Shown here in pieces: positions 25,787 to 64,000 of a DNA stretch of 64,000 nucleotides. A program made the translations under genes and the position numbers. Each line of letters opens with the position of its first letter. Within the stretch, counting starts at the first letter, position 1. The stretch spans positions 224,001-288,000 of the IMG/VR virus record IMGVR_UViG_3300017716_001697; one strand, given 5' to 3'. The stretch comes from a virus (lineage: Duplodnaviria > Caudoviricetes). The notes below the pieces were generated by a model. The model saw only the letters and a program-made list of their open reading frames with translations, ran no database searches and was not told the origin of the DNA.

Positions 25787-27114
25787 GAGCTCGTGAATTT
25801 ATCGTAGAAATACAATGGTTCCATATCCTACGGGAAGCACATAAGAATATCACTATATTACCGTACACAAAAGATTTCTCCGGGGCAGTGTATATATCCA
25901 TACCAGACATAACAAACGAAGATCTATTATACATGAAGTTAATGCATCCTAATTTTAAATATAGAGAAGTATGACTGTAACATCGCATCAACCGAAATAT
26001 AAGTTCCAGTATGTAACAATCCTGTATAGCGATCTTCAAGAGCTACATAATTACATGAATGCATTGCCGAAGAGTTATGTTGTGTGCAGTCCAAAAGTGG
26101 TACCATCCGAGTTTACAACAGTCAAGACTCCGTGTAAACTACTGTTAGATATCACAGACGAAGAACTCTTATTCCTTAAACTAAAATTTAAAACATACGA
26201 TGTCGACGAACATAAAAGTAGCAAATGAACAGATACGATCATTGTTTGATACAGTGAAAATGTCTTGCGGCGAACCATTAGTGAAATACCTGCAATACAG
26301 AAATTCAAAGGATGGCGTATCCACATTTGCATTTACTAATGCAGCTGATAAGGAATCAGTAAACTTCATTACATTAAAATTCGATCAACCGGCAAACAAC
26401 CATGGCAATTCATAAGATATCAATCAGGGCAAGTGATTACACAAGGCTGGAAGATCTCATTCTAACCATGCCCGGGCGTGATGTAACGATAATGAGAGCC
26501 GACGAATACCCTGACGGCGATGCTCCATATACTGTAGTATATCTACGTCTAGAACAGACAGAAGATCTTTCATATATCTTGTTAATGGTGGGTGGTACAC
26601 AACTGCGACATCCATGACAAACATATATTCGGTACGTTTCGATCCCGAAACATCTGCCAACGAATATAGAGAAATAAGAATCTTCTTACGTCAAATCGAT
26701 GTTCCATTCAAACGGTATCTGCAACATGCACCGGATAATGCACAGATACGAATTACCTACGATCTGTATACAACTCCAGACAACATAAGTTTTCTATCAC
26801 TAAAATATAACAAATTTGAAGTGTTATCGACTATCAAAGGGTTCAATGGATAAATATCCTAAACGGGTATTATCATGGTCAATCATTACGAAGTTACAGT
26901 AAGCACAAAAGACAAAGATAAATTTCTGAATGACTTCTACGAAATAATTGATGCATATATCTTGTATCATACCATGGTTAGTATAGACACGGATAAGATT
27001 ACAATATCAATCAACGATGAGGATCTTGCATTCCTTGCGTTGCGTTATAAAATCGCCCCTTGTAGAATTAATAATGCTCTAACCTTGTTGACAGACTTCA
27101 ACATACTGCACTAA
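25783..27114 (+). CDS. array A, six small paralogues with C-terminal T(D/N)E(D/E)L..(L/M)KL motif: 25783-25974, 25971-26228, 26200-26415, 26402-26617, 26614-26853, 26875-27114
   Basis: ITNEDLLYMKL, ITDEELLFLKL, ADKESVNFITLKF, QTEDLSYILL, TPDNISFLSLKY, NDEDLAFLALRY; overlapping start/stop codons. Confidence 0.75.
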
Positions 27115-27152
27115 CCAATTTACACGGCCAGACCCGCATGTTATAATGTAAC

Positions 27153-27718
27153 ATGACTGAAGACGACACATTCAACAAGCTACGCAAACCCACATTCGAC
27201 GCAATGTATAACAATTATATCGGGTGGTTGAATAATGAATTTTCATTCAATGGGCTAACATTAACCCTCTGGCTCGATAAAAACAATTGGGACTATGTTG
27301 AATTTGCCAATGCATGCATAAAACAAGCAGAAGATCATTAAAATGACTGAAGATGATACATTCGGTGCCTTGCAGAGGGAAGACTTCCATAGTGTATATT
27401 CTCGATATCTACGAGCTAGTGATTACACACCCATATCGGACGAAGATCTAAAAGGCACGGGCTGGACATTGGTAGAATTTCAGATTGCATTTAATAAATG
27501 GTTGATATCAAATGCCAGCCAAGATGAATAAACAATACACAGAAGAAGATACATTCAATGCTCTTAGGCAAACAAAACTCGAACGAGTGCAAATAGCTGT
27601 CGCTGAAGCACAAGGTAGTAATTACCGATTAGAACATGCTGATCTGATTAAGGTATTAAAGGAACATAATTGGAAAGTATCCGAATACTGGAAACAAGTC
27701 AAGGCAGCATCAAAGTGA
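27153..27718 (+). CDS. three TEDDTFNxLR-family paralogues: 27153-27341, 27343-27531, 27524-27718
   Basis: MTEDDTFNKLRK, MTEDDTFGALQR, YTEEDTFNALRQ; C-terminal L...(N/G)W...E(F/Y). Confidence 0.85.
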
Positions 27719-28175
27719 GAACATATCTCCTTCGTGTGAGTGACATAGATAAGAGTAAGTTAAATACCATTCTTTCTCTAGATCAGCGTATGAACATAAA
27801 CTCGGATTTGGACGAGTATGGATTTCAATTTAAACAATTTAATTTAACAGACGAAGAGCTTCTTGTGATTAAACTTATATTTCCATGGTGCATCCCGATG
27901 CTGCTAAAATGAAAACATTTCTACTCGAATTCAATGTTCACGCACCATTCTACAGTTACAGTCAAGATATTAAACGTATCGAGAAAGTAATAGGGACTAA
28001 GCTAATTCAGGTCGGTACATCCTATTCGCGGTTGCGCAGATTCGAATTGGACGACACCAGTGCCATTATTATACTCAAATTTGCATGCGATGATATTATC
28101 TTAAGCCTCAAACAAGTTGAAAAAATGGATAGTATGTTCGTCGATGATTACCGTGTGGTAGCAAATATATGTTAA
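27715..28175 (+). CDS. two array-A paralogues: 27715-27912 (GTG start), 27909-28175
   Basis: LTDEELLVIKLIF; LDDTSAIIILKF. Confidence 0.7.
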
Positions 28176-28762
28176 CAGAAGAAGATACATTCAATGCACT
28201 TCGCAGAATACCGCTGCGGAAGATGCATATACTATTGAAACCGCTTTTGATGCATGACGCACCAGGCGAAGTAATAGATAACCTATTGCACGCCAATGGA
28301 TGGACACTCGACGAGTATTACACAGAAAGGGATGCCACAGCAATGGCACGTATCAATGCATACTGCTGAAGATACGTTCAACACGTTAAGACGCATACCA
28401 TTTGACATGGTAAGACAGACACTTATTACTATCGCTATCGGAACCAATGTAAAGACCTTCCTGGAAAGTAATGGCTGGACAGAAAAAGAATACAGTGATA
28501 TGTGGCATCACAAATACAATAATGGCGTGCTCTTGGTTGGGCGCACCAGATAACAATAATGACTGAAGACGACACATTTAACACCCTACGGAGGCCATCT
28601 GTTACGGAGATGTATGCTATTCTGCATAATCATTCATATAGCATAACCTTAAATAATCCTGTACTAGAACAGCACGGCTGGACACGAGAAGAATATGATA
28701 AAGCAAAGTCCGGGATAGATATGGGTATATTCAAAGAGATACGACGTAGGTTGAACAAATGA
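28169..28762 (+). CDS. three TEDDTFNxLR-family paralogues: 28169-28369, 28356-28553, 28559-28762
   Basis: LTEEDTFNALRR, HTAEDTFNTLRR, MTEDDTFNTLRR; L..(N/H)GWT..EY. Confidence 0.85.
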
Positions 28763-30721
28763 AAAGCTATAAGATAGCAGTGCATGAGGATGAAGTAGTC
28801 GCGTTTATCAAAGAAACTGGTGCAACCTGCGACACAGCATGGGATGAACAAACCAGAACAACGAAACGATTCTTCGTGTTTGGTACTAATGGCATCCCAT
28901 ACTTCCTACACCACTTGACAACAGAAGAAGAACATGTAACAATGATACTAATGAAATACAAATCCATCCGTTATAGCAGACCTATGCACGGGATGCTGTA
29001 TTGGTGTAACGCGGGTGAGGAAATATGAAAGATCACTACCGTGTCTGGATTAATTTACACGATAAAAAGAAGTTTGAAGCACTGCTGCGTATCAACGGTA
29101 TCTACATTACATGCAGCCCTGATGCATACTTTAGATCTGAGTACGTACCAGTTTGTTATGATACACTAATGAGTGGAGAAGATGAACTAATGCTCCAACT
29201 CTCAATCGATTGTGTAATACTAAACAGGAAAGACGATGCTACAGATCTTCGAACTAAGGCATTAGAAAAAGTAAGAGCAATGGTATGAAAACTTATATCA
29301 TAGACTTTGGCGACCACACACTAGATCAATTCAATAGTATTGTGGAGCCATCACGCAGACTTAAGGATGAGAATACAGGCTGGGTAAGACGCTGGCGTGC
29401 AGTAAAGCTAACAGACGAAGAAGCCACAGTAGTGTGTCTCATCTTCAAACATATCAGAGTAAATGAAGGAGAAGGCGTCCAACTTCTCACCAAGCACTTT
29501 AGCGATCCAAAATGAACAATACACGCGAAATAGAAATAACAGTACAAACCGAAAGGTGTAACGAGCTTGCCGATGTATTGTCAACCCTGAGGCTGACATA
29601 CTATGCCTCAGATCAAGCAACCGGTACAATCACATCCACATTCAGTATCAGAGCAACCCCAGAAGACCTAGTATTGCTGAAACTTAGTATTAGCGATATA
29701 GTATTAACTGATGTATCACTTAGTATTAATGATGCAGGATATAAGGCAAGGATGACAGGCGAAGTGATAGCTCTCCGCCACAAGTATGTAGGTAAATGGC
29801 TGGGATTGAAACTGTGATAGATTGTCTTATATACTTAGATGAAACAACTGTGTCTCGCTTTAATGAACTTGTCGCACCATGTCACAGACATAAAACTTCG
29901 ATAAGCGATGTTCCACAATGGTATAGAGTTGTGCTGTATGACGAAGAAGCTACCGCAGTGTTTCTAGTATTCAAACACTTAGCAGCACAAAGAATGCCTC
30001 CATATTTCCGGGAAATGTTAGGGGATATCCATGAGTATTAAAATGCATAAGATATTTCTTGACCATAATTCCGCACAAGGATTCAATAATGTAGTGTGCG
30101 AAGAGCATCAAGTACACCACAACTTAATAGATTACTTCCCACACGGTGCCTGGTTTAATGTACTACTATCAGACGAGGAATTGACCATAATTACGCTAAA
30201 ATTCGAACCTAATCTCATTAATACATATAGACCCACCCAATAGCTCATCAATCATATTTGTGCTATAGTATTGTTATGAGTAAACTCCACTATTTGGCAT
30301 TCCTTAGTAATGATGAAATCCCCGAGTTCAACAAGATAGTATCCAACGAATCACAACTCACAATGTGCAGCCACGGCCTATCAGCTCAGTGGTTTTATAT
30401 CACACTATCACCCGAAGAATCGACCATAATTAAGCTAAAATTCAGATATGTAGAGCGAGACACACATCAACGCAATGTCACCGCTTATTCTGAATAAAGA
30501 GAACGAAAATGAATGATATTACAAAGAACTATAGTGTATTCATACATAGGAAAGATGTAGATAGATTCTATACTATAGTGAGTAACTTCGATCACAACAG
30601 CGGCCTAATGGAAACACTCTTCAATAAGCTACATGCAGGCTATCGCTTAAAAATGCATGATCATGAAACAATTATACTAAGACTTAGTATAGAAGACATA
30701 TCGATCACAGAATCCCACTAA
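28759..30721 (+). CDS. array A, eight small paralogues: 28759-29028, 29025-29288, 29285-29515, 29512-29817, 29814-30041, 30031-30243, 30276-30497, 30509-30721
   Basis: C-terminal motifs TTEEEHVTMILMKY, SGEDELMLQL, LTDEEATVVCLIF, TPEDLVLLKL, YDEEATAVFLVF, LSDEELTIITLKF, LSPEESTIIKLKF, HDHETIILRL. Confidence 0.8.
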
Positions 30722-31970
30722 GGAAAAATACACTGTGTACGAAACATGTACAGTAAAGAACCTTAGCATAATATTGCTTGAATAGTGAGAATGATAGCAT
30801 AGTATGCTATAGAAAAAGACTTAATTGGACGTAGCGGTTTAAAGGTTATTTGCAGAGGCCTCTCTCCAGGAAATAGAATGAAAAAGGGAAAGCCCCCATA
30901 GGTCTAAGATAGGAATCCTGTGTGAATTTCACGGTCAGATTTGGAAATCAGATTTGGAATCCTAGGTGCCCTTTTCAAATAGGAATCCTACGGGAGGTTT
31001 TGGCGGCAGATTCCTGCCTATGCGCCTAAAGGGCGGTCTAGGTGCCAATATGCGGCGCAATGCCCACATCAGTGCGCCGTGGCGTATGCGTATATGTGAA
31101 ATCCTTTCCACTTTAATTCACTTTGGCTTATGGTTATCGATTCGATGCCCTATAGCTTTTCACTGTGGAATCCTTATGTGCGCAATATTATGCTAAGATT
31201 TCCACGATTCGAAGCATAGAATCAAGATCTTGCACTGTGTGAATCTAAACTTTTCACTACGATCAAAGCTTTTCTTAGCATACTATGCTATGCATACCAC
31301 ATTGGAAACCTTAGTTAAACCACTAGACTGTGCTTATGCCAACAGTTATAATGGTAGGGCACGCTAGCGGGAGCAGAACAGTCACTGTAAAAGATTACAT
31401 ACAGTAAGGCCTGTACACCGGTCCGTCTCTGTTCGCCGCTAGCAACTTTATACTATAGTAGAGATCATGAACTTCTTTACTATACGTTTCTTTACTACAT
31501 AGAGTTTCTATGAATTTCACACTGTGGTTTTCTGTGAATTTCGATAAAGAGTTTCGGATTTCATAAGAATTTCACAGTGCGGATTTCGATCGGTTAGTAA
31601 GTGCTTACCAACATAGTGTGGTTTTCTTGCTACTGTGAGTTTCATGCAACGAAACGTGGAATCGGTTCCGCTTCGGTGTGGCGTATGGCCAACAGCGTTT
31701 GATCTGGTGGTTGGTGGCTTTCAACCTCGGAGGGCTGGTCTTGTGATCGTAGTACGGCCACGTGGGTTAATGCGAGGATTGTGCCCTAAGGTGTCTAAGG
31801 TATCGTTTAGCCTCGGCAGTAAAATCTTAGGTATCGTGCTCTTATCCGAGGTGGGCCGTAAGAGCATTGATTCTTATAGTGATTCTGTCTAACCTAAGCA
31901 CTAAGCCTCGCAAACGGTTCTTAAGACTCTGCAGACAGATTGCGAGGCTGTAGATATCGCTTTACTTTGA
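30722..31970. other. about 1.25-kb non-coding, repeat- and palindrome-rich junction (candidate terminus, origin or injection signal)
   Basis: No credible ORF; GGAATCCT x4 (30912, 30956, 30982, 31167); 16-bp inverted pair 30762-77/31182-97; palindrome ATAGCATAGTATGCTAT 30794-810 with complementary copy 31276-91. Confidence 0.6.
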
Positions 31971-32016
31971 GTGTGTGCTATGCTATAATAAGGTATCAAC
32001 CGCTTTAGAGACTATC

Positions 32017-38711: not shown

Positions 38712-40082
38712 ATGAAAGTTAGTCTTTTATCGGTAGTCCTTGTAGCATCTAGTATGCTACTTGGATGTGGTGGCGCTATGGAAGCCACTATCGTTGCAGC
38801 ACCGGAAGCTGTGACTCTTGCAGAAGCAGAAGAAGTGGGCGCGGAGCCATTTGGTAGTGTTGAAAGTACAGTGCTCTATATGACGCCTGCACAAGTTCGC
38901 ACACGATATGGATTCGACAGTTTGCCCAATACACCCGCTGCACAAGGCAGTGGCCAGCTGATTGCAATCATCAGCGCCTACAATAACCCGGACTTGGCTG
39001 CAAATTTGCAGGCATTCTCGGCCAAATACAACCTACCACAATGCACCACAGTGCCTACAGTATATACCCAGTTGCCTACAGGCTACACGGGGACGACTGT
39101 ATCGCATCCACCTACAGGCCGCGGGTGTACATTGCAAGTCATTAACGTGGATAGTTTTGGTCGGGTGACTAAGATGGTTCCACAAGGTGGGCCGGCAACA
39201 GCACCATGGATGATGGAATCCACTATGGACATTGAGTGGGCGCACGCAATTGCACCACAAGCAAGCATATTGGTAATTCAAGCACCCAGCATCTTTGTTG
39301 GTGCACTCGGTAATGCGGCAAAGTATGCAAGTAGCGTGGGAGCCGACGTTGTTTCAATGTCGTGGGGTGTCAATGAGACTTCACAACAATGTACACGCAA
39401 GCCCGGACAACCTACTGTGAAGTATGTTTCTACATGCGACGATGCGGCAACAGCAGCAAAATATTGGCAAACCGTGGACACTATGTTCGCTGGTTCGGCA
39501 ACATTTGTAGCGGCATCCGGCGACCGTGCAGTTCTACAGTGGCCATCCATTAGCCCTAAGGTAATGGCAGTCGGCGGCACGAATGCATATGGTCCAGCTG
39601 GCAAAGACACTGCATGGCCATTGTCAGGAGGCGGAGTTTCTAAATCGTTTCCTGCACCTAGTTGGCAAGCAAACCACATGAAGGCTGCAAACAGGAATGT
39701 ACCAGACGTATCACTTGTTGCTGGAACACCGGTGGCAGTCTACATCAAGCCAAATGCTAAGACTGGATTTGACGACTCAACTTGCGTAGCAGCGAAGGGT
39801 GAAAGTGGCTGTGGATGGTATGGTGGTGGTGGTACTAGTGCAGCGGCACCTATGTGGGCAGGCATTGTGGCAATCACTAATGCTATGCGTATTGCGGGCA
39901 GCATGAAGAGTACAGAGTTCGTTTCATCGTTATACACCAACGTCGCTAGTGTGCGCGGCACCTATGCATCTTCATTAGATGATGTTATAGTTGGAGCACA
40001 TGCTAATGAAGGATATGACATTTCGACAGGATTGGGTGTACCTAATGCCAACAACCTAATCAACTACATGGCATCACGATAG
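38712..40082 (+). CDS. lipoprotein S53 (sedolisin/kumamolisin-like) serine protease
   Basis: Lipobox LLG-C; ESTMDIEWAHAIAP (Glu/Asp), VVSMSWG, ASGD oxyanion Asp, GGTSAAAP nucleophile, GYD..TGLG.P Ca site. Confidence 0.88.
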   Translation: MKVSLLSVVLVASSMLLGCGGAMEATIVAAPEAVTLAEAEEVGAEPFGSVESTVLYMTPAQVRTRYGFDSLPNTPAAQGSGQLIAIISAYNNPDLAANLQAFSAKYNLPQCTTVPTVYTQLPTGYTGTTVSHPPTGRGCTLQVINVDSFGRVTKMVPQGGPATAPWMMESTMDIEWAHAIAPQASILVIQAPSIFVGALGNAAKYASSVGADVVSMSWGVNETSQQCTRKPGQPTVKYVSTCDDAATAAKYWQTVDTMFAGSATFVAASGDRAVLQWPSISPKVMAVGGTNAYGPAGKDTAWPLSGGGVSKSFPAPSWQANHMKAANRNVPDVSLVAGTPVAVYIKPNAKTGFDDSTCVAAKGESGCGWYGGGGTSAAAPMWAGIVAITNAMRIAGSMKSTEFVSSLYTNVASVRGTYASSLDDVIVGAHANEGYDISTGLGVPNANNLINYMASR

Positions 40083-40477: not shown

Positions 40478-40611
40478 GGCTAAAATATCTGCAGAAATCT
40501 GTAGACAAGCAACTCTTCCTGCGTTATAATCAATACATGGACAGCAAGCAGTAACAAACAAGCAAGCTGCACATAAGTTAGTTTACTTTATTATCAACTT
40601 AGGAGTCTATT

Positions 40612-41061
40612 ATGACACAAGGTATCCGTGCTTTCACTATCGCTACTTTCAACGCAACCCTGCCACGTTTGGCTGAACTGGGCAACATCGCATTCCGTCG
40701 GGAAGTGATGGACCAGGCGATCATGGGTTTTGGTATCAGCGTTGCATCCGCTGCAACCCATTACAACCACGCACTGAAGACCGTGCGTGAAGCAAGCCCA
40801 GAAGCTGTGAAGGGCCTGGGTCGCCCCGAAGACAAGAAGGGCGGACGCAAGCCCATCCACTTGGTTGACGTGGTGAAGGCCAAGTCCGGCGATGTGGTTG
40901 CAACTGGTCTGAGCAAGGCTGCTGCTGAAGCAATGATTGCTGAAGCTGCTGCCAAGGGCAAGGTCAAGCTGGCTATCAAGGTAGTGGTTGACATGCCAGT
41001 CGCAGCTACCACTGAAGTGGCTACCACTGAAGCTGCACCTGCAGAAGCTGTTACTGCGTAA
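40612..41061 (+). CDS. Ala/Lys-rich putative DNA-binding protein, AATHYN-GLGR family
   Basis: FRREVM...GISVASAATHYNHALK...GLGRPEDKKGGRKP; strong codon bias. Confidence 0.88.
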   Translation: MTQGIRAFTIATFNATLPRLAELGNIAFRREVMDQAIMGFGISVASAATHYNHALKTVREASPEAVKGLGRPEDKKGGRKPIHLVDVVKAKSGDVVATGLSKAAAEAMIAEAAAKGKVKLAIKVVVDMPVAATTEVATTEAAPAEAVTA

Positions 41062-41238: not shown

Positions 41239-41400
41239 GCCCCTTTAGTTCAGCGGTCTAGAACGTCAGGCGAGGTGTTGATATACTAGTCAATACGCAT
41301 CAATGACATTGGGATTAACATTGCAGTGATCGGCCGGTTGCTGTGGTGCCTAGTGTGGTAAAGCTTGAAGACACTGGTTCGAATCCAGGGTGGGGTACCA
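41239..41400 (+). tRNA. tRNA-like RNA with about 90-nt insertion replacing the anticodon loop
   Basis: Acceptor GCCCCTT/GTGGGGT-A-CCA; T8A9; D-arm GTTC-AGCGGTCTA-GAAC; anticodon stem TCAGGC/GCTTGA; T-arm CTGG-TTCGAAT-CCAG; encoded CCA ends 41400. Confidence 0.75.
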
Positions 41401-41825: not shown

Positions 41826-42062
41826 ATGCTTATTACGAAAACAATGGTGGAAACAGCGATGTGTCTACTTCCGCAAACTATCATTAACGCTTTCACCCGT
41901 AGTGGTTATTACGGTGAAATCATCCTTACTGCACAATTTAAGGGCATGACTACTACCGGTAAATTTGCGTACTGGGTAACATTCGGTGGCGACGATAACT
42001 GCGAGCCTGTTATGTGTTATGTATGTTTCAATGATGCAGGGGAATTTCTGGCAGACTATTGA
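41826..42062 (+). CDS. hypothetical protein
   Basis: Promoter TTGACC..TACACT; ATG 41826. Confidence 0.7.
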   Translation: MLITKTMVETAMCLLPQTIINAFTRSGYYGEIILTAQFKGMTTTGKFAYWVTFGGDDNCEPVMCYVCFNDAGEFLADY

Positions 42063-42112
42063 CAGGTTCCATCCTACACAGTATAATACATTAACGCAAC
42101 AAGGAGCACACA

Positions 42113-55821: not shown

Positions 55822-56160
55822 ATGACACACCCTAACCCCATAGTCCCAGCAGAAGTATCGCGTCAGCGTGTGGCACACTACACCATATGGCACGGGGAGG
55901 TACTCGTAACAGTAACGCAGCACCTAGGGGCCTATGGCTTCTACAGTGCGGCCATGGTAGTCGAGCGTATGGATGGGCCCATCGAGTGTATGCTCTACGA
56001 GGGGTACAGTGGGGACACCCCTAAGCACCTGGGCGAGCTAGTGATGCGCAACTGGGTAGCAAGTAAGCTCAACCAGCTAGCTACAGGTACTCACAACGCT
56101 GTAGGCGACTATAGCGAAATTGTGCGTGGTGCAGACACAGCCATTATTGGAACAGTATAG
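55822..56160 (+). CDS. hypothetical protein
   Basis: ORF with atypical composition. Confidence 0.5.
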   Translation: MTHPNPIVPAEVSRQRVAHYTIWHGEVLVTVTQHLGAYGFYSAAMVVERMDGPIECMLYEGYSGDTPKHLGELVMRNWVASKLNQLATGTHNAVGDYSEIVRGADTAIIGTV

Positions 56161-56300
56161 CATACATTCTCGCAAAAATCCCAGTCAGCACTATATAATT
56201 TCGAGGTGTTGTTTTTTTGCGACCGTGGGCAAGCCGCAAGCCACTTTTTTCCACAGTCCTATAGACCTGGTCATATTTTTCCACGTAGTCCTATAATGTT
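56161..56300. repeat. non-coding junction with inverted and direct repeats
   Basis: TCGCAAAAA(56170)/TTTTTGCGA(56214); TTTTTCCAC(N)AGTCCTATA x2 (about 56245, 56276). Confidence 0.65.
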
Positions 56301-56302
56301 AT

Positions 56303-56581
56303 ATGCTGTATAATGTAAATACCATTATGCCAACTTCAAGCTTATTCCCTGATTACTGTTATTGCACTATAGTGAAATGCTGGGCGCATGAAGATATAGA
56401 CCATCATTCAAAACGGTTCTACGCCGCAACAGAATGGTTACTTAAATATAATGCAGTATTAATGGAAGACTGCGAAGATGCACACGGACATTATTACACT
56501 TCAAGATACATTGTGAAGTTTGTTAGTAAAGATGATATGCTAGCGTTTATGCTTCAATTCGGTGATTTGCTAGAACGCTAA
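56303..56581 (+). CDS. array-B-type small protein
   Basis: C-terminal VKFVSKDDMLAFMLQF. Confidence 0.7.
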   Translation: MLYNVNTIMPTSSLFPDYCYCTIVKCWAHEDIDHHSKRFYAATEWLLKYNAVLMEDCEDAHGHYYTSRYIVKFVSKDDMLAFMLQFGDLLER

Positions 56582-56633
56582 AAATTTTTTAGTAAATTTT
56601 TCTTAGCCCGCTATATAGAACACAATATGACTC

Positions 56634-58046
56634 TTAGTAGTTTCTATTGTGATCACCAGTTTGATAGTTAGTGCCGTTGACTTGATTGGAGTGTGCTATA
56701 TATTCCTGTACATTAGGGGTCGGGCTTCTTATATACCCGTATGCTGAAGGATTCAACTTTACAGCCATCATCTGTAATGCTGAGTCTGGTAGAGCCATAT
56801 ACTCTATGGATGTTGGATCCATTTTTAGTGCTGCTTCAAGAGTCTTTCTATTTACTTTGAAGTCACCACGACGGAAGAACTTCAATGCAGCTTTACCATG
56901 TTTTTCTAATACACGTAATTGTAAGTCGACTGGTATTTCTATATCTTGCTCTACTAAGGAACCTGCTATTGTGGGATCATTCAATACAGCAGCATCTATA
57001 ACTGCACTAGTTGGTTCGATATCGTATTTTAATAAATTGTTTATTTCTCCACCGTCGGCTGATACTACTGCTAGTTGGACTGCTTCTGATGGATTATAAC
57101 CATTGTGTAACATGTCGGAAAGTTCGTCAGGTGCAACCCTTAATGTAACCATGCGAACCTTTTCGTTGTCGTCGGCTAGCATTGTCCATACACCTCTGGT
57201 ATCATTATCTGTTGCAGCTATTAACGCTACCTTTTCTGGATAGTTAGTTAGCTTCTTATTATCGTTAGTTTTTAATAATGCGTATATGTATCTCTTGCAT
57301 AGTTGACCATCTTCTGAATCTACAAGTTTCTTTTCTAGTTCTGGATCGCGTTGATAACCATCGAAATTTTTCATTAACTCGTATACTTGGTTTGTTAATT
57401 CTTTGCGATCTTTGCGAGTGGAATCTATTTGTCCGCTGGTCGCAGGAACATCGCCGTTTACTAACTTGCACAGTTCGTAAAGATCTAAGCCGGTTTGTTT
57501 TCTGAATTCGGTGGGTGTAATACTGTTATCGCGCTGGTCGAATATCTCTGAGTTTTCTGGTAAGTCTTTATGTGTAGCCAATGCCCACATACCACCGGTT
57601 TGTTTTTGCAAACAGTATATAAGTGTTATATTCTTATTGTGGAAGTAATCGTTAAAGTAATTTTGATCGGATTTAGTTGTGCACCAGTTACTATCCTTAC
57701 CGTGGAAACAACTAGCGTTCTTGTCTAGTGGAACTACTATAAGCCAATTGTCGTCTTCTTTTACTGTTACGGACTTGCCGGGTACTTTCTTTCTTTTAAT
57801 TTGTGTAGCGGTGTTTGTTTCGGATTTGCCGTTTACAAATTTTAAAAAGTTATCCCACCCTTGCTTACGCCAGTGATCTATGTTACGCTCGTTGCCTGCC
57901 ACTTGATTCTTTGTTACTAATGTCTTATACTTGTTAATAGCGTCGGCAGCGGTGGCTGGATCTGAAGCAGCAGAAAATTCCTGCGTTGCTTCTTTGTAGC
58001 CTTCTGTTATTGATAATGATGATGAAAATAATTCTATTAACCGCAT
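56634..58046 (-). CDS. 470-aa putative late/virion-packaged protein with C-terminal helical repeats (DUF4116-like)
   Basis: Upstream minus-strand GATAAATA; N-terminal MRLIELF..ITE; I.VP....ASC..G..S.WCTT...YF..Y; repeats such as ALQMMAVKLNPSAYGYI. Confidence 0.8.
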   Translation of the reverse strand: MRLIELFSSSLSITEGYKEATQEFSAASDPATAADAINKYKTLVTKNQVAGNERNIDHWRKQGWDNFLKFVNGKSETNTATQIKRKKVPGKSVTVKEDDNWLIVVPLDKNASCFHGKDSNWCTTKSDQNYFNDYFHNKNITLIYCLQKQTGGMWALATHKDLPENSEIFDQRDNSITPTEFRKQTGLDLYELCKLVNGDVPATSGQIDSTRKDRKELTNQVYELMKNFDGYQRDPELEKKLVDSEDGQLCKRYIYALLKTNDNKKLTNYPEKVALIAATDNDTRGVWTMLADDNEKVRMVTLRVAPDELSDMLHNGYNPSEAVQLAVVSADGGEINNLLKYDIEPTSAVIDAAVLNDPTIAGSLVEQDIEIPVDLQLRVLEKHGKAALKFFRRGDFKVNRKTLEAALKMDPTSIEYMALPDSALQMMAVKLNPSAYGYIRSPTPNVQEYIAHSNQVNGTNYQTGDHNRNY

Positions 58047-58079
58047 TTGTAAATCCTAATTTCTTGTATTTATCTTAAT

Positions 58080-60853
58080 ATGTATAGACTGCACATCCGC
58101 GATTATAAAAACAATATGCTTGATGCATGCCATTGGTGGAAGAACTTTACTGTTGTGTACAGGAAGGTCGTGCAATCTACTTATATTGAATTAGAAGATT
58201 ATATACTGGAACACCACGGTGGGGTCTATAATGGTGGAGCGTCGTGGCATATTGACTTCGATGAAAAAGAAGACGCTGCTGCATTCGTATTGAGGTATAG
58301 CTGATATGTATAAACTAGAAGTAATTAAGAACTACGAAAATAGGCCCGATGGCGAAGATTACGACGATACTTTGTGGATGAAGTTTCTTACTAATGCAGC
58401 ACATCTGGATGTAGATAATAATATATTTAAAGCAACCGATAAGGTATTAGAAGAGTACGGCGGTACTAATCCGCGGCGTACTGGGCATCTATTATTCGAA
58501 ACAGAAGAAGCCGCCCTTGCATTTAAATTGGTATGGTTGACATAATGTACTTGGTAAATTTATCGGATACACCATACAAGAACGCTTGGAAAAACTATGC
58601 ATCTGTGAAACGGTTGGCCGGGACATGGGACTTAACTAGTGGACTAGAACAAATTAATGCAGTTGATGCTCCAGAGAGTTCCAATGAAATTTATTTTCTT
58701 ACAGAAGAAGATGCCACTGCATTTGTATTAAGGTATTCGTAATATGTACCAATTAGAAGTAATTAGATCTTATATACACGACGAAGTGGAGTATCGTGAT
58801 GATACCCTGTGGCTAAATTTTATTACTAGGGTTGGCGATGAGTGCAACACTGGTCGGACCAGTAACACTGATGATATATTTGATGCGATGGATGTGATAC
58901 TTAAAGAGTATAATGGCATTAATCCGCGAAACACTAGTTACCTGATCTTTGCGACACCAGAAGATGCATTAGCATTTAAGATAGTGTGGTTGACATAATG
59001 TACACAGTAAATTTATACACTGAGAAATACAGTAATGCGTGGGATAACTATACGCTCGATTATCGAATTACCGAAGAATGGGATTTAGACGAAATGCTGA
59101 GAAACATTAATGCAGTTGATAATCCTCTTAGCCGTGAAGAGATTTATTTTAAGGCTGAAGAAGATGCACTTGCATTTCTTTTAAAGTATTCCTAATATGT
59201 ACGCATTAACTCTTACAGATCTGAAAACATGGCAGGGACATAAATGGTGGGACAATTTCTGCAGAGAAAATAAGATACTGACTATCGTGGAACCAGTAAC
59301 TAAGAAAAGCAGAGTAAACGTCTTGTTGCGTAAACACAACGGTGTGTTTACTACGGGCCCACTTTGGTCTGTTGTGTTTGACACAGAGGAAGACGCTACA
59401 GCATTTATATTGAGGTTTTCCTAATGTACACGTTAAAAATCGACTCTAAAACTACACCATGGTGGAACTTCTTAGGGAGCATTAAGGACGAAGATATTAT
59501 AGGTAAGACTGCTAATGAGCAATTAGATTTTATAAATCTATCGTTGTATGAGTATAAGGGAGAATGTTTCCTTACCACTAGATTGGATAGAATTAGTATA
59601 GTACACTTCGAAACAGAAGAAGATTATGTTGTGTTTAAGTTAAGGTTTTCCTAATATGTACAAATTAAGAATTAATGTTAGTAAGAAGTCGGACTACGAA
59701 GCGACATATTACGATTCTGCAACCTGGTGGAAGAACTTTAACGACTGGTATCATAACACATGTACAGTGGGTATGAATAAGGATGACTATATGCTACAGG
59801 TATGTGGATGTAGTTATGAAATGTCGCCTGAGTGGATACTTAAATTTAATACAGAAGAAGATGCAACTGTTTTTAAGTTAAGGTTTAGTTAATTATGGCA
59901 TACAGATACCGTATTGTAAACGCTCCGAATATCTGGGCTAACTTCTTAGTCGACTCTAGGTATAGTGACGAGATAGAACTACAGTCGTGGTGGGAATATA
60001 CCGTTTGGTGTTCTGAAAAGTTAAAACCATGGAATGCTACCTTAGTGGGATCTATTGATGGCATAGTTTTTGAAAATGACGATGATGCAGTGGCCTTTAA
60101 ACTAAAGTATTCCTGATGTACGAATTTTATATCTTTACACATAATCTCCATGTATGGGAAAACTTTGTGGCTAGCACAGCAGCAGGTGGGCAAGATGGAG
60201 ATACATATATTAGTACACTTAATGATGCATTAGAAAGATATAAAGGTGTTATTAAGCCGCATTATGTAGAATTTGCCACCGAGGAAGATTTTATAGTTTT
60301 TAGATTGAGCTTTGCGTAAATATGACACCAGTATATGCACCGATAAAGAATGATCGCGAACATGAGATCGCAGTAATGAAATGGTTAAACGAGTTACCGT
60401 CCCAGAGTTACCATTGGGACGAAGAGTATCAGGAATTGCAGTTTAGACATGAAACAGATGCAGTAGCATTTATATTAAAGTTCGGAATATGATAACAATT
60501 GCCACAGACAGTGTACCTATGGAAGTATATTATGCTATAATGAATTGGTTAGAGACTGACGATATAGAACATGAAGCACTACTGGAAGACTCGCTTGGCT
60601 ATGTTGCGGCAATACGCATGTCCGAAGAAGATGCGTTAATAATGAGATTGAAACTAGGCATATGAATAATAAACGTAAACTATGTACACAGGTATTTATT
60701 GTGCCCGATAAGCCAGTATACAGACAATGGCTTGCAGCCTTACCAAAGAAACGGTGGTTCCACCGTAGAACATCGAATTGGTGGGATGATTATATCGAAC
60801 TACACCTACAGCCAGAAGATGCCCTAGCATTTAAACTAAGATTTGAATTATGA
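58080..60853 (+). CDS. array B part 1, 13 paralogues: 58080-58304, 58306-58545, 58545-58742, 58744-58998, 58998-59195, 59197-59424, 59424-59654, 59656-59892, 59895-60116, 60116-60319, 60322-60492, 60489-60665, 60662-60853
   Basis: All end F(D/E/L/A/N)x(E/K/P)EDAxxF(K/V/I/L)L(R/K)(Y/F/W)(S) or a close variant; TAATG/ATGA junctions. Confidence 0.88.
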
Positions 60854-61185
60854 ATACAAACACTATATTAAACGAAGATTACACAGCTGGTGTATTGGCA
60901 GGTATACCATTTTTCTGTATTAACAGATTATACAGATGTAATGAAGGAAGCATGGCACTTAAGGTGCAATATGAATTTACTTTTGATAACGGGTACGGAG
61001 CCAGCATTGTCGAATTCCATGATAAGATGTATTCTGGTGGTGCGCAGTACGAATTAGCAGTACTCCGTGATGATCGGTTGGTATACGATACCTATATAAC
61101 ATCTGATGTGGAGCGTGGCAATGAAAAGTATATGCACGAATTACTAAATAAAATTGAACAGTTAAACCAACTGCCTAGTAGTTAG
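60850..61185 (+). CDS. hypothetical phage protein (not array family)
   Basis: F.F.NGYGASIV....Y.G...YELAVL. Confidence 0.85.
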   Translation: MNTNTILNEDYTAGVLAGIPFFCINRLYRCNEGSMALKVQYEFTFDNGYGASIVEFHDKMYSGGAQYELAVLRDDRLVYDTYITSDVERGNEKYMHELLNKIEQLNQLPSS

Positions 61186-61187
61186 CT

Positions 61188-63777
61188 ATGATAAGATACG
61201 ATGATACATTGGTACGTGCCCACATTGTGCGAGCATGGATTGCAGCGGAATACGACGCTTTAGATAAATGGGTGATGCAGTGCGATAATGCGGTATGGGA
61301 TTACAATGGACCACGTAGCCATTACAAAGGTAGGCTATTCTATTCTTATGTGATATTTGACTCTACTGAAGATTTACTAGCATGCAAATTAGTCTTTCCA
61401 GAAATTGATTTAGTAAGATATGCCGATTAACACTGTATATTATACATTTGATTTTTGCGTTTCGGCGCGTCCTGCAGGACACCAATACAACCCGCCTGAA
61501 CCAAATTTTGACAAATATTGACATGGCATACCTGTTTAATGTACACTATGAAGTCGAGCCTAATCTGTGGATTAACTTTCAGACTGCAGAAGGTGGGCCA
61601 GAATTTAATGCAGACGACTGCACTTTTCAAGAGAGATACACTACCTGGATAGATGCTGCACTTAAGAAATATAATGCATATAATGTAGAGGGTGGCACAT
61701 ATATCTATTTCGAAACAGAGGAAGATGCTACTGCTTTTAAACTGAGGTTTAGCTAATGATATCAATACATTTTTCTGAAGCTATAGATATACACAATACC
61801 AGGAATTATTTCGAAAATTTCTACTCAATGGTGTGGAAGGCAAATTTCGGACAGACCGTCGATGATTGGCCATTAGATAGGGCGTTAGACACAGCAATTA
61901 AAGAGTATGGCGGTATCAGCGTAGTTAGACGATATCATAATGCATACCAAGCATATAGATATGTTGCTAAATTCGAGTCCGAGGAAGACCTTGTTGTTTT
62001 TAAATTAAAGTTCAGCTAATGATATTAGTTCCACTACCACTCAACAAATTAGAAAGAATGACTCGTGAACACTGGTGTATAGAACATATAGGTGACCCGA
62101 GTCCGTCGACATGGTTCATACTAAATTCAATATACCAATTGTCAAATAAGAGTGTAAACATGGTGGAATATAACAGATATAACAATGCAGGGTTAACAAG
62201 ATGTCTAGCAATATGCAATCACGAAACTGCTAGTGCATATAAATTAAGGTTTGGTATATCATGAGTTATTCTGTACAATGTAAATATACAACTGACATTG
62301 AATATTATAAAACAATGAAGCAATGGTTGCTGGATACAGGCATGACGGCATGGCGTTGGGATGATGGGCGATATCGTATGATATTTGAAGATGAAATGGA
62401 TGCACTTACCTTCAAACTAAGATATCAGAATGATGTTGATGAGCAGAATATATGATACTCGTAGATGTTAATTCACCTAAATTTAACTATCCTGCACCGT
62501 GGGATAAATTTGTTAAGGTTGCTGATGCTCTGTGGTCGGAAAGGTTTAGACACGCAGAGTGGCGTGATTTTTTAGATGCGCAGTTACTTGATATGGGTGC
62601 AGTAAATATAATGAATACCTATTACATTGAGTTCAAAGATAGGAGTGATGCCCTTGCGTTCATACTCAAATTTGGTGGCATCTATGAAGATCGTGAATTG
62701 ACACCGGACGACGATGGCAGCGTATAAGCACAGCGAGCAATTCACAGTCGTACGCATCCCCGACGATTATGATTTCTACGAAGATGATTCAATGTACGAG
62801 TGGTGCGAAGAGCATGCCGGTGATAGAAGCTATAGTTGGGGATACGATGACAAGCAGGGGATTATCTGGTTTGCCGAATCTATTGTCGCCAACCTGTTTA
62901 AATTAACATTCGGAATATGATTTATATTAAATTTCCCAACTACGAAATTATACCAATGGTGACAGCATCTGATTTACTACGAAGCTATATGGTATGGTTA
63001 AATGAACATGCTGGTAATGGACCTACAATAAACGACGAACAGTTACTTAAAGAGTGGGACTGGGTGCGCGGTGATAGATATGCACGAGGTGTTTATATAC
63101 GCGACCCAGAGGTAGCCACTATGTTTAAATTAAAATTCACATTATGACTAATATAGTAGATACAGCAGTTAGAGATAACGAATATCTTGGTATGGTAAAG
63201 GTTGACTTAAAGTTACTCTGGGACGGACCAGCTGCTGTTAGTCCTAAAACATATAATATCTATAAGAATATGTGTCAATGGCTTAGTGAGTCTAAAATAA
63301 CACACAGATTCTTTTGGGACAATACTGGCCAGTATCTACCTAATGCAATCTATCTGGATGCGAAGAGTGACACTGCGACATATTTTATGTTAAAGTACGG
63401 TATATGCAGGTAGATTTAAGACACATATCAAACGACCTTTACAGAAGTGTGTGGTCGTATCTGTTAAGACCTGATAATAAACCCATGTGGGAATATTCAG
63501 TGGCAAGTGTTAATTTAGATGATATTATATATTTTCATAATAAAGAAGATGCCACATTTTTTAAATTAAAGTTTGGATTGTAATGTACCGTATCGTGCGT
63601 AATAGTCTAGTCGATGATGCTGAATGGGTTACGCTCGAATGTACTACACAAATCGGTTCGTGGATTAATACCCAATCATCTGACTTGTGGTACTGCCACA
63701 CAGGTATGCCACACGGGCACCTGTACTACGATATTCACGAAGAACTATTGTTGTTGATTAAGTTGAAATACGGTTAG
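61188..63777 (+). CDS. array B part 2, 11 paralogues: 61188-61430, 61481-61756, 61756-62019, 62019-62264, 62261-62455, 62452-62727, 62714-62920, 62917-63147, 63144-63413, 63404-63583, 63583-63777
   Basis: FDSTEDLLACKL, FETEEDATAFKLRFS, FESEEDLVVFKLKFS, NHETASAYKLRFG, FEDEMDALTFKLRY, FKDRSDALAFILKFG, FAESIVANLFKLTFG, RDPEVATMFKLKF, SDTATYFMLKYG, FHNKEDATFFKLKFG, HEELLLLIKLKYG. Confidence 0.85.
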
Positions 63778-63814
63778 GCATAAATATCTGAATTGGTAAT
63801 AACCAAGGAGGGTA

Positions 63815-64000
63815 ATGCAGTTTTTATTCAATACACGTGAGTTAATAGGTAACATAGATTGCGCTGAGGCACTGTTTTCGTATCACCACTATGTTAACTG
63901 GTGTATAAATAATATAGACCAAGATCAATGGGAATTGGACAACACAGACATTATTTGCGTTGGCGGCAAATCTGTGGCTGGTGCCATTCGCATTAAGAAT
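63815..64000 (+). CDS. hypothetical protein, 3' truncated (possibly array family)
   Basis: AAGGAGG RBS; VNWCINNI...QWE. Confidence 0.65.
   Translation, partial: MQFLFNTRELIGNIDCAEALFSYHHYVNWCINNIDQDQWELDNTDIICVGGKSVAGAIRIKN

Follow-up and report, generated by a model that had tools for sequence, protein, structure and literature searches.

Genomic setting of the tRNA-like gene

The window analysed here is a 64-kb stretch comprising bases 224001-288000 of a 364,576-bp virus record, which has direct terminal repeats and is rated complete. The source genome (~365 kb) belongs to a jumbo phage rich in small rightward genes. Its DNA is present in freshwater metagenomes, and a DNA comparison found no relatives among GenBank phages. 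The window contains a tRNA-shaped RNA gene of 162 nt, in which a structured insert takes the place of the anticodon loop (Table 1). The gene is intergenic and flanked by genes of the same strand. On its upstream side, a gene for a 149-aa protein is followed by a separately conserved structured RNA, which ends 4-6 nt before the first nucleotide (G1) of the tRNA-like RNA. On its downstream side, the start codon of a 73-aa membrane protein follows after 38 nt. The 73-aa protein is found in relatives both with and without the tRNA-like RNA. The nearest sigma-70-like promoters lie before the 149-aa gene and, as a perfect match, at 42059-42087.

The phage encodes 45 standard tRNA genes, including normal tRNA-Tyr(GUA) and tRNA-Leu(UAA), all of them outside the window. 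The tRNA-Leu(UAA) gene is split after U34 by a 205-nt group I intron, which is the sole match (53 bits) of the Rfam model Intron_gpI (RF00028). Position 34 of this tRNA is the classic insertion site in cyanobacteria and plastids, here occupied in a phage. An amber suppressor tRNA (CUA anticodon), a tmRNA of the phage's own (tag ANADTFALVA) and a full-length gene for the RNA ligase RtcB (427 bits) are also encoded outside the window. The RtcB gene sits among tRNA genes, 5 kb from a cluster of odd tRNA-like genes. Neither an EndA-type endonuclease (PF01974, E<=0.1) nor a Ro60/TROVE gene was found in the phage.

A genome scan for modules consisting of a T arm, an acceptor stem and CCA revealed about ten further tRNA-shaped genes of 110-200 nt elsewhere in the same genome, outside the window and uncalled by standard ARAGORN. 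Among these are a gene with an insert in its D loop, one whose variable arm measures ~90 nt, and another in which the anticodon loop contains an insert. Several have abnormal anticodon loops, such as A33 in a 200-nt gene. No sequence is common to these genes and the insert described below.

Table 1 Features of the tRNA-like gene, its surroundings and related loci. Coordinates refer to the window unless marked as genome positions.
Feature	Coordinates	Strand	Basis or remarks
Whole tRNA-shaped RNA gene, 162 nt, encoded ACCA end	41239..41400	+	Sequence; ARAGORN intron mode; homologues L131:3609-3769 and L121:8931-9087
Acceptor stem, 5' strand (partner 41390-41396)	41239..41245	+	Pair 7-66 = U.G, C-G, G-C; pair 1-72 = G.U or G-C
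D arm, 4-bp stem and 9-nt loop with G18 G19	41248..41264	+	Stem pairs kept in 3/3; loop invariant
Anticodon-stem equivalent, 5' strand (standard 27-32; partner 41363-41368)	41266..41271	+	Two double changes, all cells paired
Insert, 91 nt, in place of nucleotides 33-37; three-way junction with joiners GA (5'), A (middle) and AAA (3')	41272..41362	+	RNAalifold consensus, pair counts
Hairpin 1, 9-bp stem of fast-evolving sequence, conserved 10-nt loop AU-NCUAGN-CA	41274..41301	+	4/9 pairs changed on both sides
Self-complementary hexamer in hairpin 1 loop	41285..41290	+	Alignment: ACUAGU (window), UCUAGG (L131), UCUAGA (L121)
Hairpin 2, ~23 stacked layers, conserved A/U-rich bulge ((AU)UAA), GATC-NNNN-GRTY tip	41303..41359	+	Alignment, RNAalifold, pair counts
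T arm, canonical loop TTCGAAT	41373..41389	+	Pair 50-64 = C-G or G.U; pair 49-65 mismatched here, G-C in L121
Discriminator A73 and encoded CCA	41397..41400	+	Invariant in 3/3 homologues
Upstream structured RNA, hairpin and ~135-nt domain closed by 16-bp helix	41078..41235	+	Five homologues; 6 closing-helix pairs changed on both sides
149-aa protein gene	40612-41061	+	
S8/S53-like peptidase gene	38712-40082	+	
Sigma-70-like promoter before 149-aa gene	40502-40530		
Perfect sigma-70-like promoter	42059-42087		
tmRNA	genome 30533-30892		
Amber suppressor tRNA	genome 33705-33780		
RtcB RNA ligase gene	genome 212810-213937		
tRNA-Leu(UAA) with group I intron	genome 218359-218648		Intron_gpI match at genome 218339-218574
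Further tRNA-shaped modules (ends)	genome 5454, 5823, 10176, 10488, 13520, 13648, 219423, 219628		Scan for T arm, acceptor and CCA

Architecture of the tRNA body

The original prediction described a tRNA-like RNA with an insert of about 90 nt. A direct reading of the sequence bears this out, with a complete body and an insert of 91 nt. The acceptor stem of 7 bp consists of G1.U72, four C-G pairs, a U6xU67 mismatch and U7.G66, and is followed directly by U8 (T8) and A9. The D stem (GTTC/GAAC) encloses the loop AGCGGTCTA and leads to G26. The anticodon stem TCAGGC/GCTTGA comprises 6 bp (T-A, C-G, A-T, G.T, G-C, C-G), the variable loop has 4 nt and contains C48, and the T stem reads (A)CTGG/CCAG(G). 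The standard dimensions of the body and the elbow nucleotides U8, A14, G15-C48, G18, G19, A21, T54, T55, C56 and A58 are invariant in all three homologues. Mismatches are tolerated in the acceptor and T stems, namely U6xU67 and A49xG65 in the window copy and G3xG70 in the homologue on contig L121. The cloverleaf is thus represented by its 7-bp acceptor, D arm, T arm, elbow and 3' CCA. What is missing is the anticodon loop of 7 nt, with its U33 and purine 37, and 91 nt are found instead.

With default settings, ARAGORN makes no call in the window, and an Rfam scan gives no match there either. In intron mode the gene is the single call, labelled 'Tyr(gta), 84-nt intron'. Thirty dinucleotide-preserving shuffles of the 64-kb window gave 0 calls in the same mode, and the call is therefore more than chance. 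The bodies closest to that of the tRNA-like RNA are those of phage tRNA-Arg genes; the anticodon, with its arginine identity element, has been lost. As to aminoacylation elements, the RNA has no G3.U70, G-1 or long variable arm. We know of no synthetase among those ignoring the anticodon that would be an obvious fit.

The insert replacing the anticodon loop

The insert sits exactly between the standard positions 32 and 38 and forms a three-way junction from which two hairpins extend. Between the window copy and the homologue on contig L131, hairpin 1 has changed at about 15 of 26 positions, with pairing and loop retained. In the window copy, its 9-bp register contains two mismatches, and an alternative 7-bp register exists. 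The GTGTTGA/TCAATAC hairpin of the original prediction survives as one of the two possible registers, though not as the only one. Within the loop of hairpin 1, the positions flanking CUAG change together in the three-sequence alignment. This self-complementary hexamer may form a kissing-loop dimer, or its outer positions may form an internal pair closing a CUAG tetraloop.

In hairpin 2, the outer 10 pairs are 100% paired and include one double change, and all four differences between the window and L131 among the inner 13 pairs keep the pairing. In L121, a helix of similar length is formed in a shifted register. The second hairpin proposed originally, CAATG/CATTG, had to be given up, as it is not kept in L121 and clashes with the conserved long hairpin. 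The insert contains no ORF, and no paralogue of it was found in the phage's own genome. A coding reading of the tRNA-like RNA was considered as well and is excluded by 1- and 2-nt indels between the homologues.

Homologues and covariation

Relatives of the phage were reached via the neighbouring S8-like protease and the 149-aa protein. Among them, three distinct copies of the RNA were found in syntenic slots of related uncultivated jumbo phages, namely those of the window, L131 and L121. Six contigs from at least four assemblies carry the L131 form without any difference, and the 149-aa protein beside it has 85% identity to that of the window. L121, a contig of 284 kb, encodes an S8-like protein with 52% identity to that of the window. 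As the window and L131 copies are close overall, including a nearly identical 38-nt spacer 3' of the gene, agreement between these two alone says little. A 15.5-kb contig from a wastewater run spans the gene unspliced at ~85% identity; the run is labelled RNA-Seq, is probably DNA, and is uninformative on expression or splicing. In the contigs of P0003 and P0004, the place that corresponds to the gene is taken up by 346 and 773 nt without ORFs.

Pair counts were made on the alignment of the three sequences. In the proposed structure, 90.6% of cells are paired, compared with 35-45% when the partners are slid, and nine pairs are changed on both sides, where the slid controls have 0-6 and shuffles average 3.7; these statistics are weak because there are just three distinct sequences. 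In the acceptor stem, pair 7-66 takes a different paired form in each homologue. The anticodon stem shows two double changes (C-G/U-A and A-U/G-C), and compensation is seen in the T stem as well. G26.A44 of the window becomes A26.G44 in L121. To judge from the alignment, these compensatory changes suggest, short of proof, that the tRNA stems and the insert structure are both being preserved. Covariation among homologues and a search of Rfam had been put forward with the original prediction as ways to check it. The former finds the insert to be a conserved, covarying structure and not a decaying sequence, and the latter matches no family.

Other syntenic relatives lack the gene. Two (L117 and L118) have a small acidic ORF where the tRNA-like gene would be, and two (L137 and L139) have only an 84-nt spacer. 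The whole gene is either present or absent in syntenic relatives, and no insert-less allele was found among them. The IMG/VR relatives identified via the S8-like and 149-aa proteins (L011, L012, L140-L160 and records G001-G005) contain ordinary tRNAs only and no copy of the RNA. Exact and degenerate patterns for the RNA had no match in IMG/VR. A pattern search of GTDB genome contigs gave one match, by chance, inside a 757-aa ORF, and a metagenome scan with the S8-like profile was swamped by cellular S53 peptidases at 30-36% identity. The gene is an accessory cassette with a narrow, patchy distribution, and the neighbouring genes do not co-vary with its presence. It represents a real, conserved and unannotated phage RNA family.

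Decoding and splicing

We enumerated, for all three homologues, every single excision that would leave a 7-nt loop on a standard 5-bp stem. In none of the three does any such excision place a U at position 33, which extends to the homologues the original observation that no U33-type loop is evident. Of the candidate loops, CGUAAAG alone is conserved, and pairing of its C32 with G38 would reduce it to five bases. The anticodons that can be read into the junction are already served by normal tRNAs of the phage. Since no excision yields U33 and the normal tRNAs already cover the possible anticodons, the tRNA-like RNA, judged by its sequence, is almost certainly non-decoding and unable to read codons.

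Between 40900 and 41600, no Rfam family matched the RNA even at E<=10, and two chance snoRNA matches lie beside the gene. Within the same interval and threshold, no hammerhead or other small ribozyme was matched, and the Rfam tRNA model gives no score for 41239-41400. Group I introns are characterised by a P3-P8 core, a G-binding site, a U.G pair at the 5' splice site, a terminal G and a length of at least 200 nt. No group I signal was detected at the gene by the search that recovers the real intron of tRNA-Leu(UAA). The protein-spliced tRNA introns of archaea and eukaryotes have a 3-4-3 bulge-helix-bulge at their exon-intron junctions. Inspection of the alignment by hand found this motif absent in both stem-end registers: the four bases after a 3-nt 5' bulge (GUGU or GGUG) form no pairs with the four preceding the 3' stem strand (UAAA or AAAG).

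The original prediction had offered two readings, a short spliced intron and a non-decoding tRNA mimic. The intron reading has lost ground, with no group I signal, bulge-helix-bulge, EndA or insert-less allele detected, though RtcB is present. The mimic is strengthened by the absence of any restorable canonical loop, by the conserved and covarying insert, and by the lack of an Rfam family. As possible jobs of such a mimic, the original prediction had named those of a decoy for anticodon nucleases or a modulator of RelA or the ribosome.

Comparison with known systems

The stable RNAs of phage T4 known as species 1 and 2 (rnaC, 139 nt; rnaD, 119 nt) originate from a tRNA cluster and have no assigned role (PMC3014915). 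To judge from folding, the RNA described here resembles rnaC in its paired ends, in the canonical T arm (GGGUUCGAAUCCC in rnaC) and in the extra long hairpins. It differs in encoding CCA, which rnaC does not, and in having both a standard D arm and an anticodon stem, neither of which appears in the rnaC fold. The extra domains have no similarity in sequence or by model, as model R1 gives 11 bits on rnaC and 170.7 bits on the present RNA. Unlike the T4 RNAs, this gene stands alone, far from the tRNA clusters of the phage. To our knowledge, non-decoding tRNA-like RNAs of phages have been known since T4 species 1 and 2, and none has an assigned function.

Lak megaphages contain 'enigmatic' tRNA introns, including one of 93 nt in a tRNA-Tyr(GUA) (Devoto et al. 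2019, PMC6784885). The likeness is considerable, as both cases involve oversized phage tRNA genes, an insert of ~90 nt at the anticodon loop, a Tyr(GTA) label in intron mode (ARAGORN/tRNAscan) and no known intron class. However, the Lak tRNA-Tyr has a canonical C32-U33-G34-U35-A36 with the insert placed after position 37, whereas here positions 33-37 are replaced and U33 is unrestorable. Lak genes also have insert-less alleles, and none was found for this RNA among syntenic relatives. The two hallmarks of the Lak type, a canonical loop after removal of the insert and insert-less alleles, are therefore both lacking.

In the engineered tRNA scaffold of Ponchon and Dardel (PMC3753655), the anticodon stem of a tRNA body serves as the attachment point for a structured RNA, and E. 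coli processes and accumulates the chimera like a tRNA. The topology is the same, but the scaffold is man-made, whereas the present RNA is a natural, conserved phage gene for which such processing is inferred. It thereby offers a natural counterpart to the engineered design.

Y RNAs of the YrlA type are tRNA mimics bound by Ro60/Rsr that occur in some phages and, in some bacteria, beside rtcB. They share with the present RNA a tRNA-like elbow joined to a long bulged helix. Their topology is reversed, since their ends lie in the protein-binding stem and the acceptor is closed, whereas the ends of this RNA lie at the acceptor. No Rfam match to Y RNAs was obtained and the phage has no TROVE gene, and the RNA cannot be placed in this group.

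tmRNA combines a tRNA-like domain that lacks a D stem with a tag-peptide reading frame and pseudoknots. The resemblance lies in the tRNA-like acceptor and T arm with CCA and in the large inserted domain. The RNA described here differs in its full D arm and anticodon stem and in having neither a tag frame nor pseudoknots. ARAGORN finds no tmRNA in the window and recovers the real tmRNA of the phage elsewhere in the genome. Together with the D stem and the absence of an ORF from the insert, this agrees with the contrast to tmRNA drawn in the original prediction.

A proposed stable non-decoding RNA on a tRNA scaffold

We favour, with moderate confidence, the reading that the product of the gene is a stable RNA that does not decode and has a tRNA as its scaffold, in which the tRNA half would provide processing and stability and the junction domain would be the working part. 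The host RNA polymerase would make an early, rightward multi-gene transcript that contains the tRNA-like RNA. Its intact tRNA body would direct RNase P to cut at G1, and 3' trimming would halt at the encoded CCA. The released 162-nt RNA would be protected as a tRNA would be. The three-way-junction domain would then do the work, most probably either by binding a protein partner or by pairing with a second copy via its palindromic loop. Promoter-like sites occur upstream, but the gene has none immediately in front of it, as would be expected if it were co-transcribed and then processed. Counted against the stable-RNA reading are the mismatches in the acceptor and T stems, the neighbouring genes that do not co-vary with the RNA, and the weak covariation statistics. 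RtcB and the roughly ten oversized tRNA-like genes would also suit an unknown splicing system.

Such a system is the basis of a different reading, by which the gene is a tRNA gene with a short 'enigmatic' intron that an unknown endonuclease excises, after which the phage RtcB rejoins the halves into a working tRNA. The phage does encode RtcB, its tRNA-Leu(UAA) carries a genuine group I intron, it possesses several other oversized tRNA-like genes, and unexplained tRNA introns, including that of tRNA-Tyr(GUA), have been published for Lak megaphages (PMC6784885). A cut after position 32/33 would moreover give the same loop, CGUAAAG, from all three homologues. However, this loop would shrink to 5 nt through the C32-G38 pairing, and U33 results from no excision, whereas the Lak tRNA-Tyr retains C32-U33-G-U-A before its intron. 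The group I signal found in the real intron is absent here, the junctions are without a 3-4-3 bulge-helix-bulge, EndA was not detected, though a divergent or host nuclease might act in its place, and syntenic relatives lack the whole gene, none of them having an insert-less allele. Normal Tyr and Leu(UAA) tRNAs are, in addition, already present in the phage. We consider splicing into a working tRNA unlikely.

A comparably low probability is assigned to a role as a processing signal only, by which RNase P and 3' trimming would separate the 73-aa gene on the early transcript from the structured RNA or 149-aa gene upstream, the released RNA having no job of its own. tRNA-like punctuation with RNase P cleavage inside operons is established elsewhere. 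The location would suit this role, as the element is intergenic among same-strand genes, has no promoter of its own, and is separated by 4-6 nt from the closing helix of the upstream RNA and by 38 nt from the start codon that follows. An acceptor and T-arm half would suffice for such a signal, yet the 91-nt insert is structurally kept by compensatory changes and conserved loops, and at this very junction L137 and L139 do without such an element. That the gene is a tRNA pseudogene in decay, perhaps of tRNA-Arg descent, which has taken up a neutral insertion, appears very improbable. Such a pseudogene would account for the mismatches in the acceptor and T stems, for the closeness of the body to phage tRNA-Arg genes and for the narrow, patchy distribution. 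Against it stand the compensatory changes that affect three tRNA stems (acceptor, anticodon and T) and the insert, as well as the invariance of the tertiary-contact nucleotides and CCA even though the flanking S8-like proteins are only 52% identical. The L131 form is, furthermore, identical in six contigs.

More speculatively, and with rather little probability in our estimate, this gene and the roughly ten oversized tRNA-shaped genes might be substrates of an undescribed pathway of bacterial viruses that cuts RNA and rejoins it with the phage RtcB, or the palindromic-loop domain might let this RNA, disguised as a tRNA, pair with itself and act as a decoy that would block a defence enzyme of the host directed at tRNAs. 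In either case, tRNA-shaped RNAs would have a function in phage infection that is new.

The stable non-decoding RNA that we favour would be a clean case of its kind, with a compact three-way junction precisely in place of the anticodon loop of a tRNA body, structure-preserving changes in three phages, and one form that is unchanged in metagenome assemblies of several studies. A phage that combines about ten oversized tRNA-like genes with a group I intron, RtcB, a tmRNA and a suppressor tRNA is a good system for asking what role such RNAs play.

The adjacent structured RNA and neighbouring genes

The structured RNA upstream of the tRNA-like gene has an 11-bp hairpin whose 3' arm is common to the 16-bp closing helix. 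It contains the near-invariant stretch CUAUACUGAAGUCGGUC, with two differences in L117, and the stretch GAAGGCAAGCAG, with one difference in L117. It had no Rfam match (E<=10), and an IMG/VR pattern search for the element gave four matches, all by chance and inside coding sequence. In L117 and L118, the upstream RNA occurs without the tRNA-like RNA and directly ahead of a small ORF, in L118 ahead of a ribosome-binding site. It probably lies on the same transcript as the tRNA-like RNA. Possible roles for it are those of a switch, a leader or a small RNA in its own right.

The 149-aa protein belongs to a large conserved family (584 matches) with invariant AATHYNH and EDKKGGRK motifs and two or three paralogues per jumbo-phage genome. 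It is assigned to neither a Pfam nor a PHROG family, and GenBank phages gave no relative. The S8/S53-like peptidase has an N-terminal lipoprotein-like CGGG motif. It is conserved in the phage lineage, variably present among syntenic relatives and missing in the L131-type phage. Across the window, the GC content falls to 37-41% at 26000-32000 and 56000-64000, compared with 43-50% elsewhere; these low-GC stretches may be acquired islands or a different expression class.
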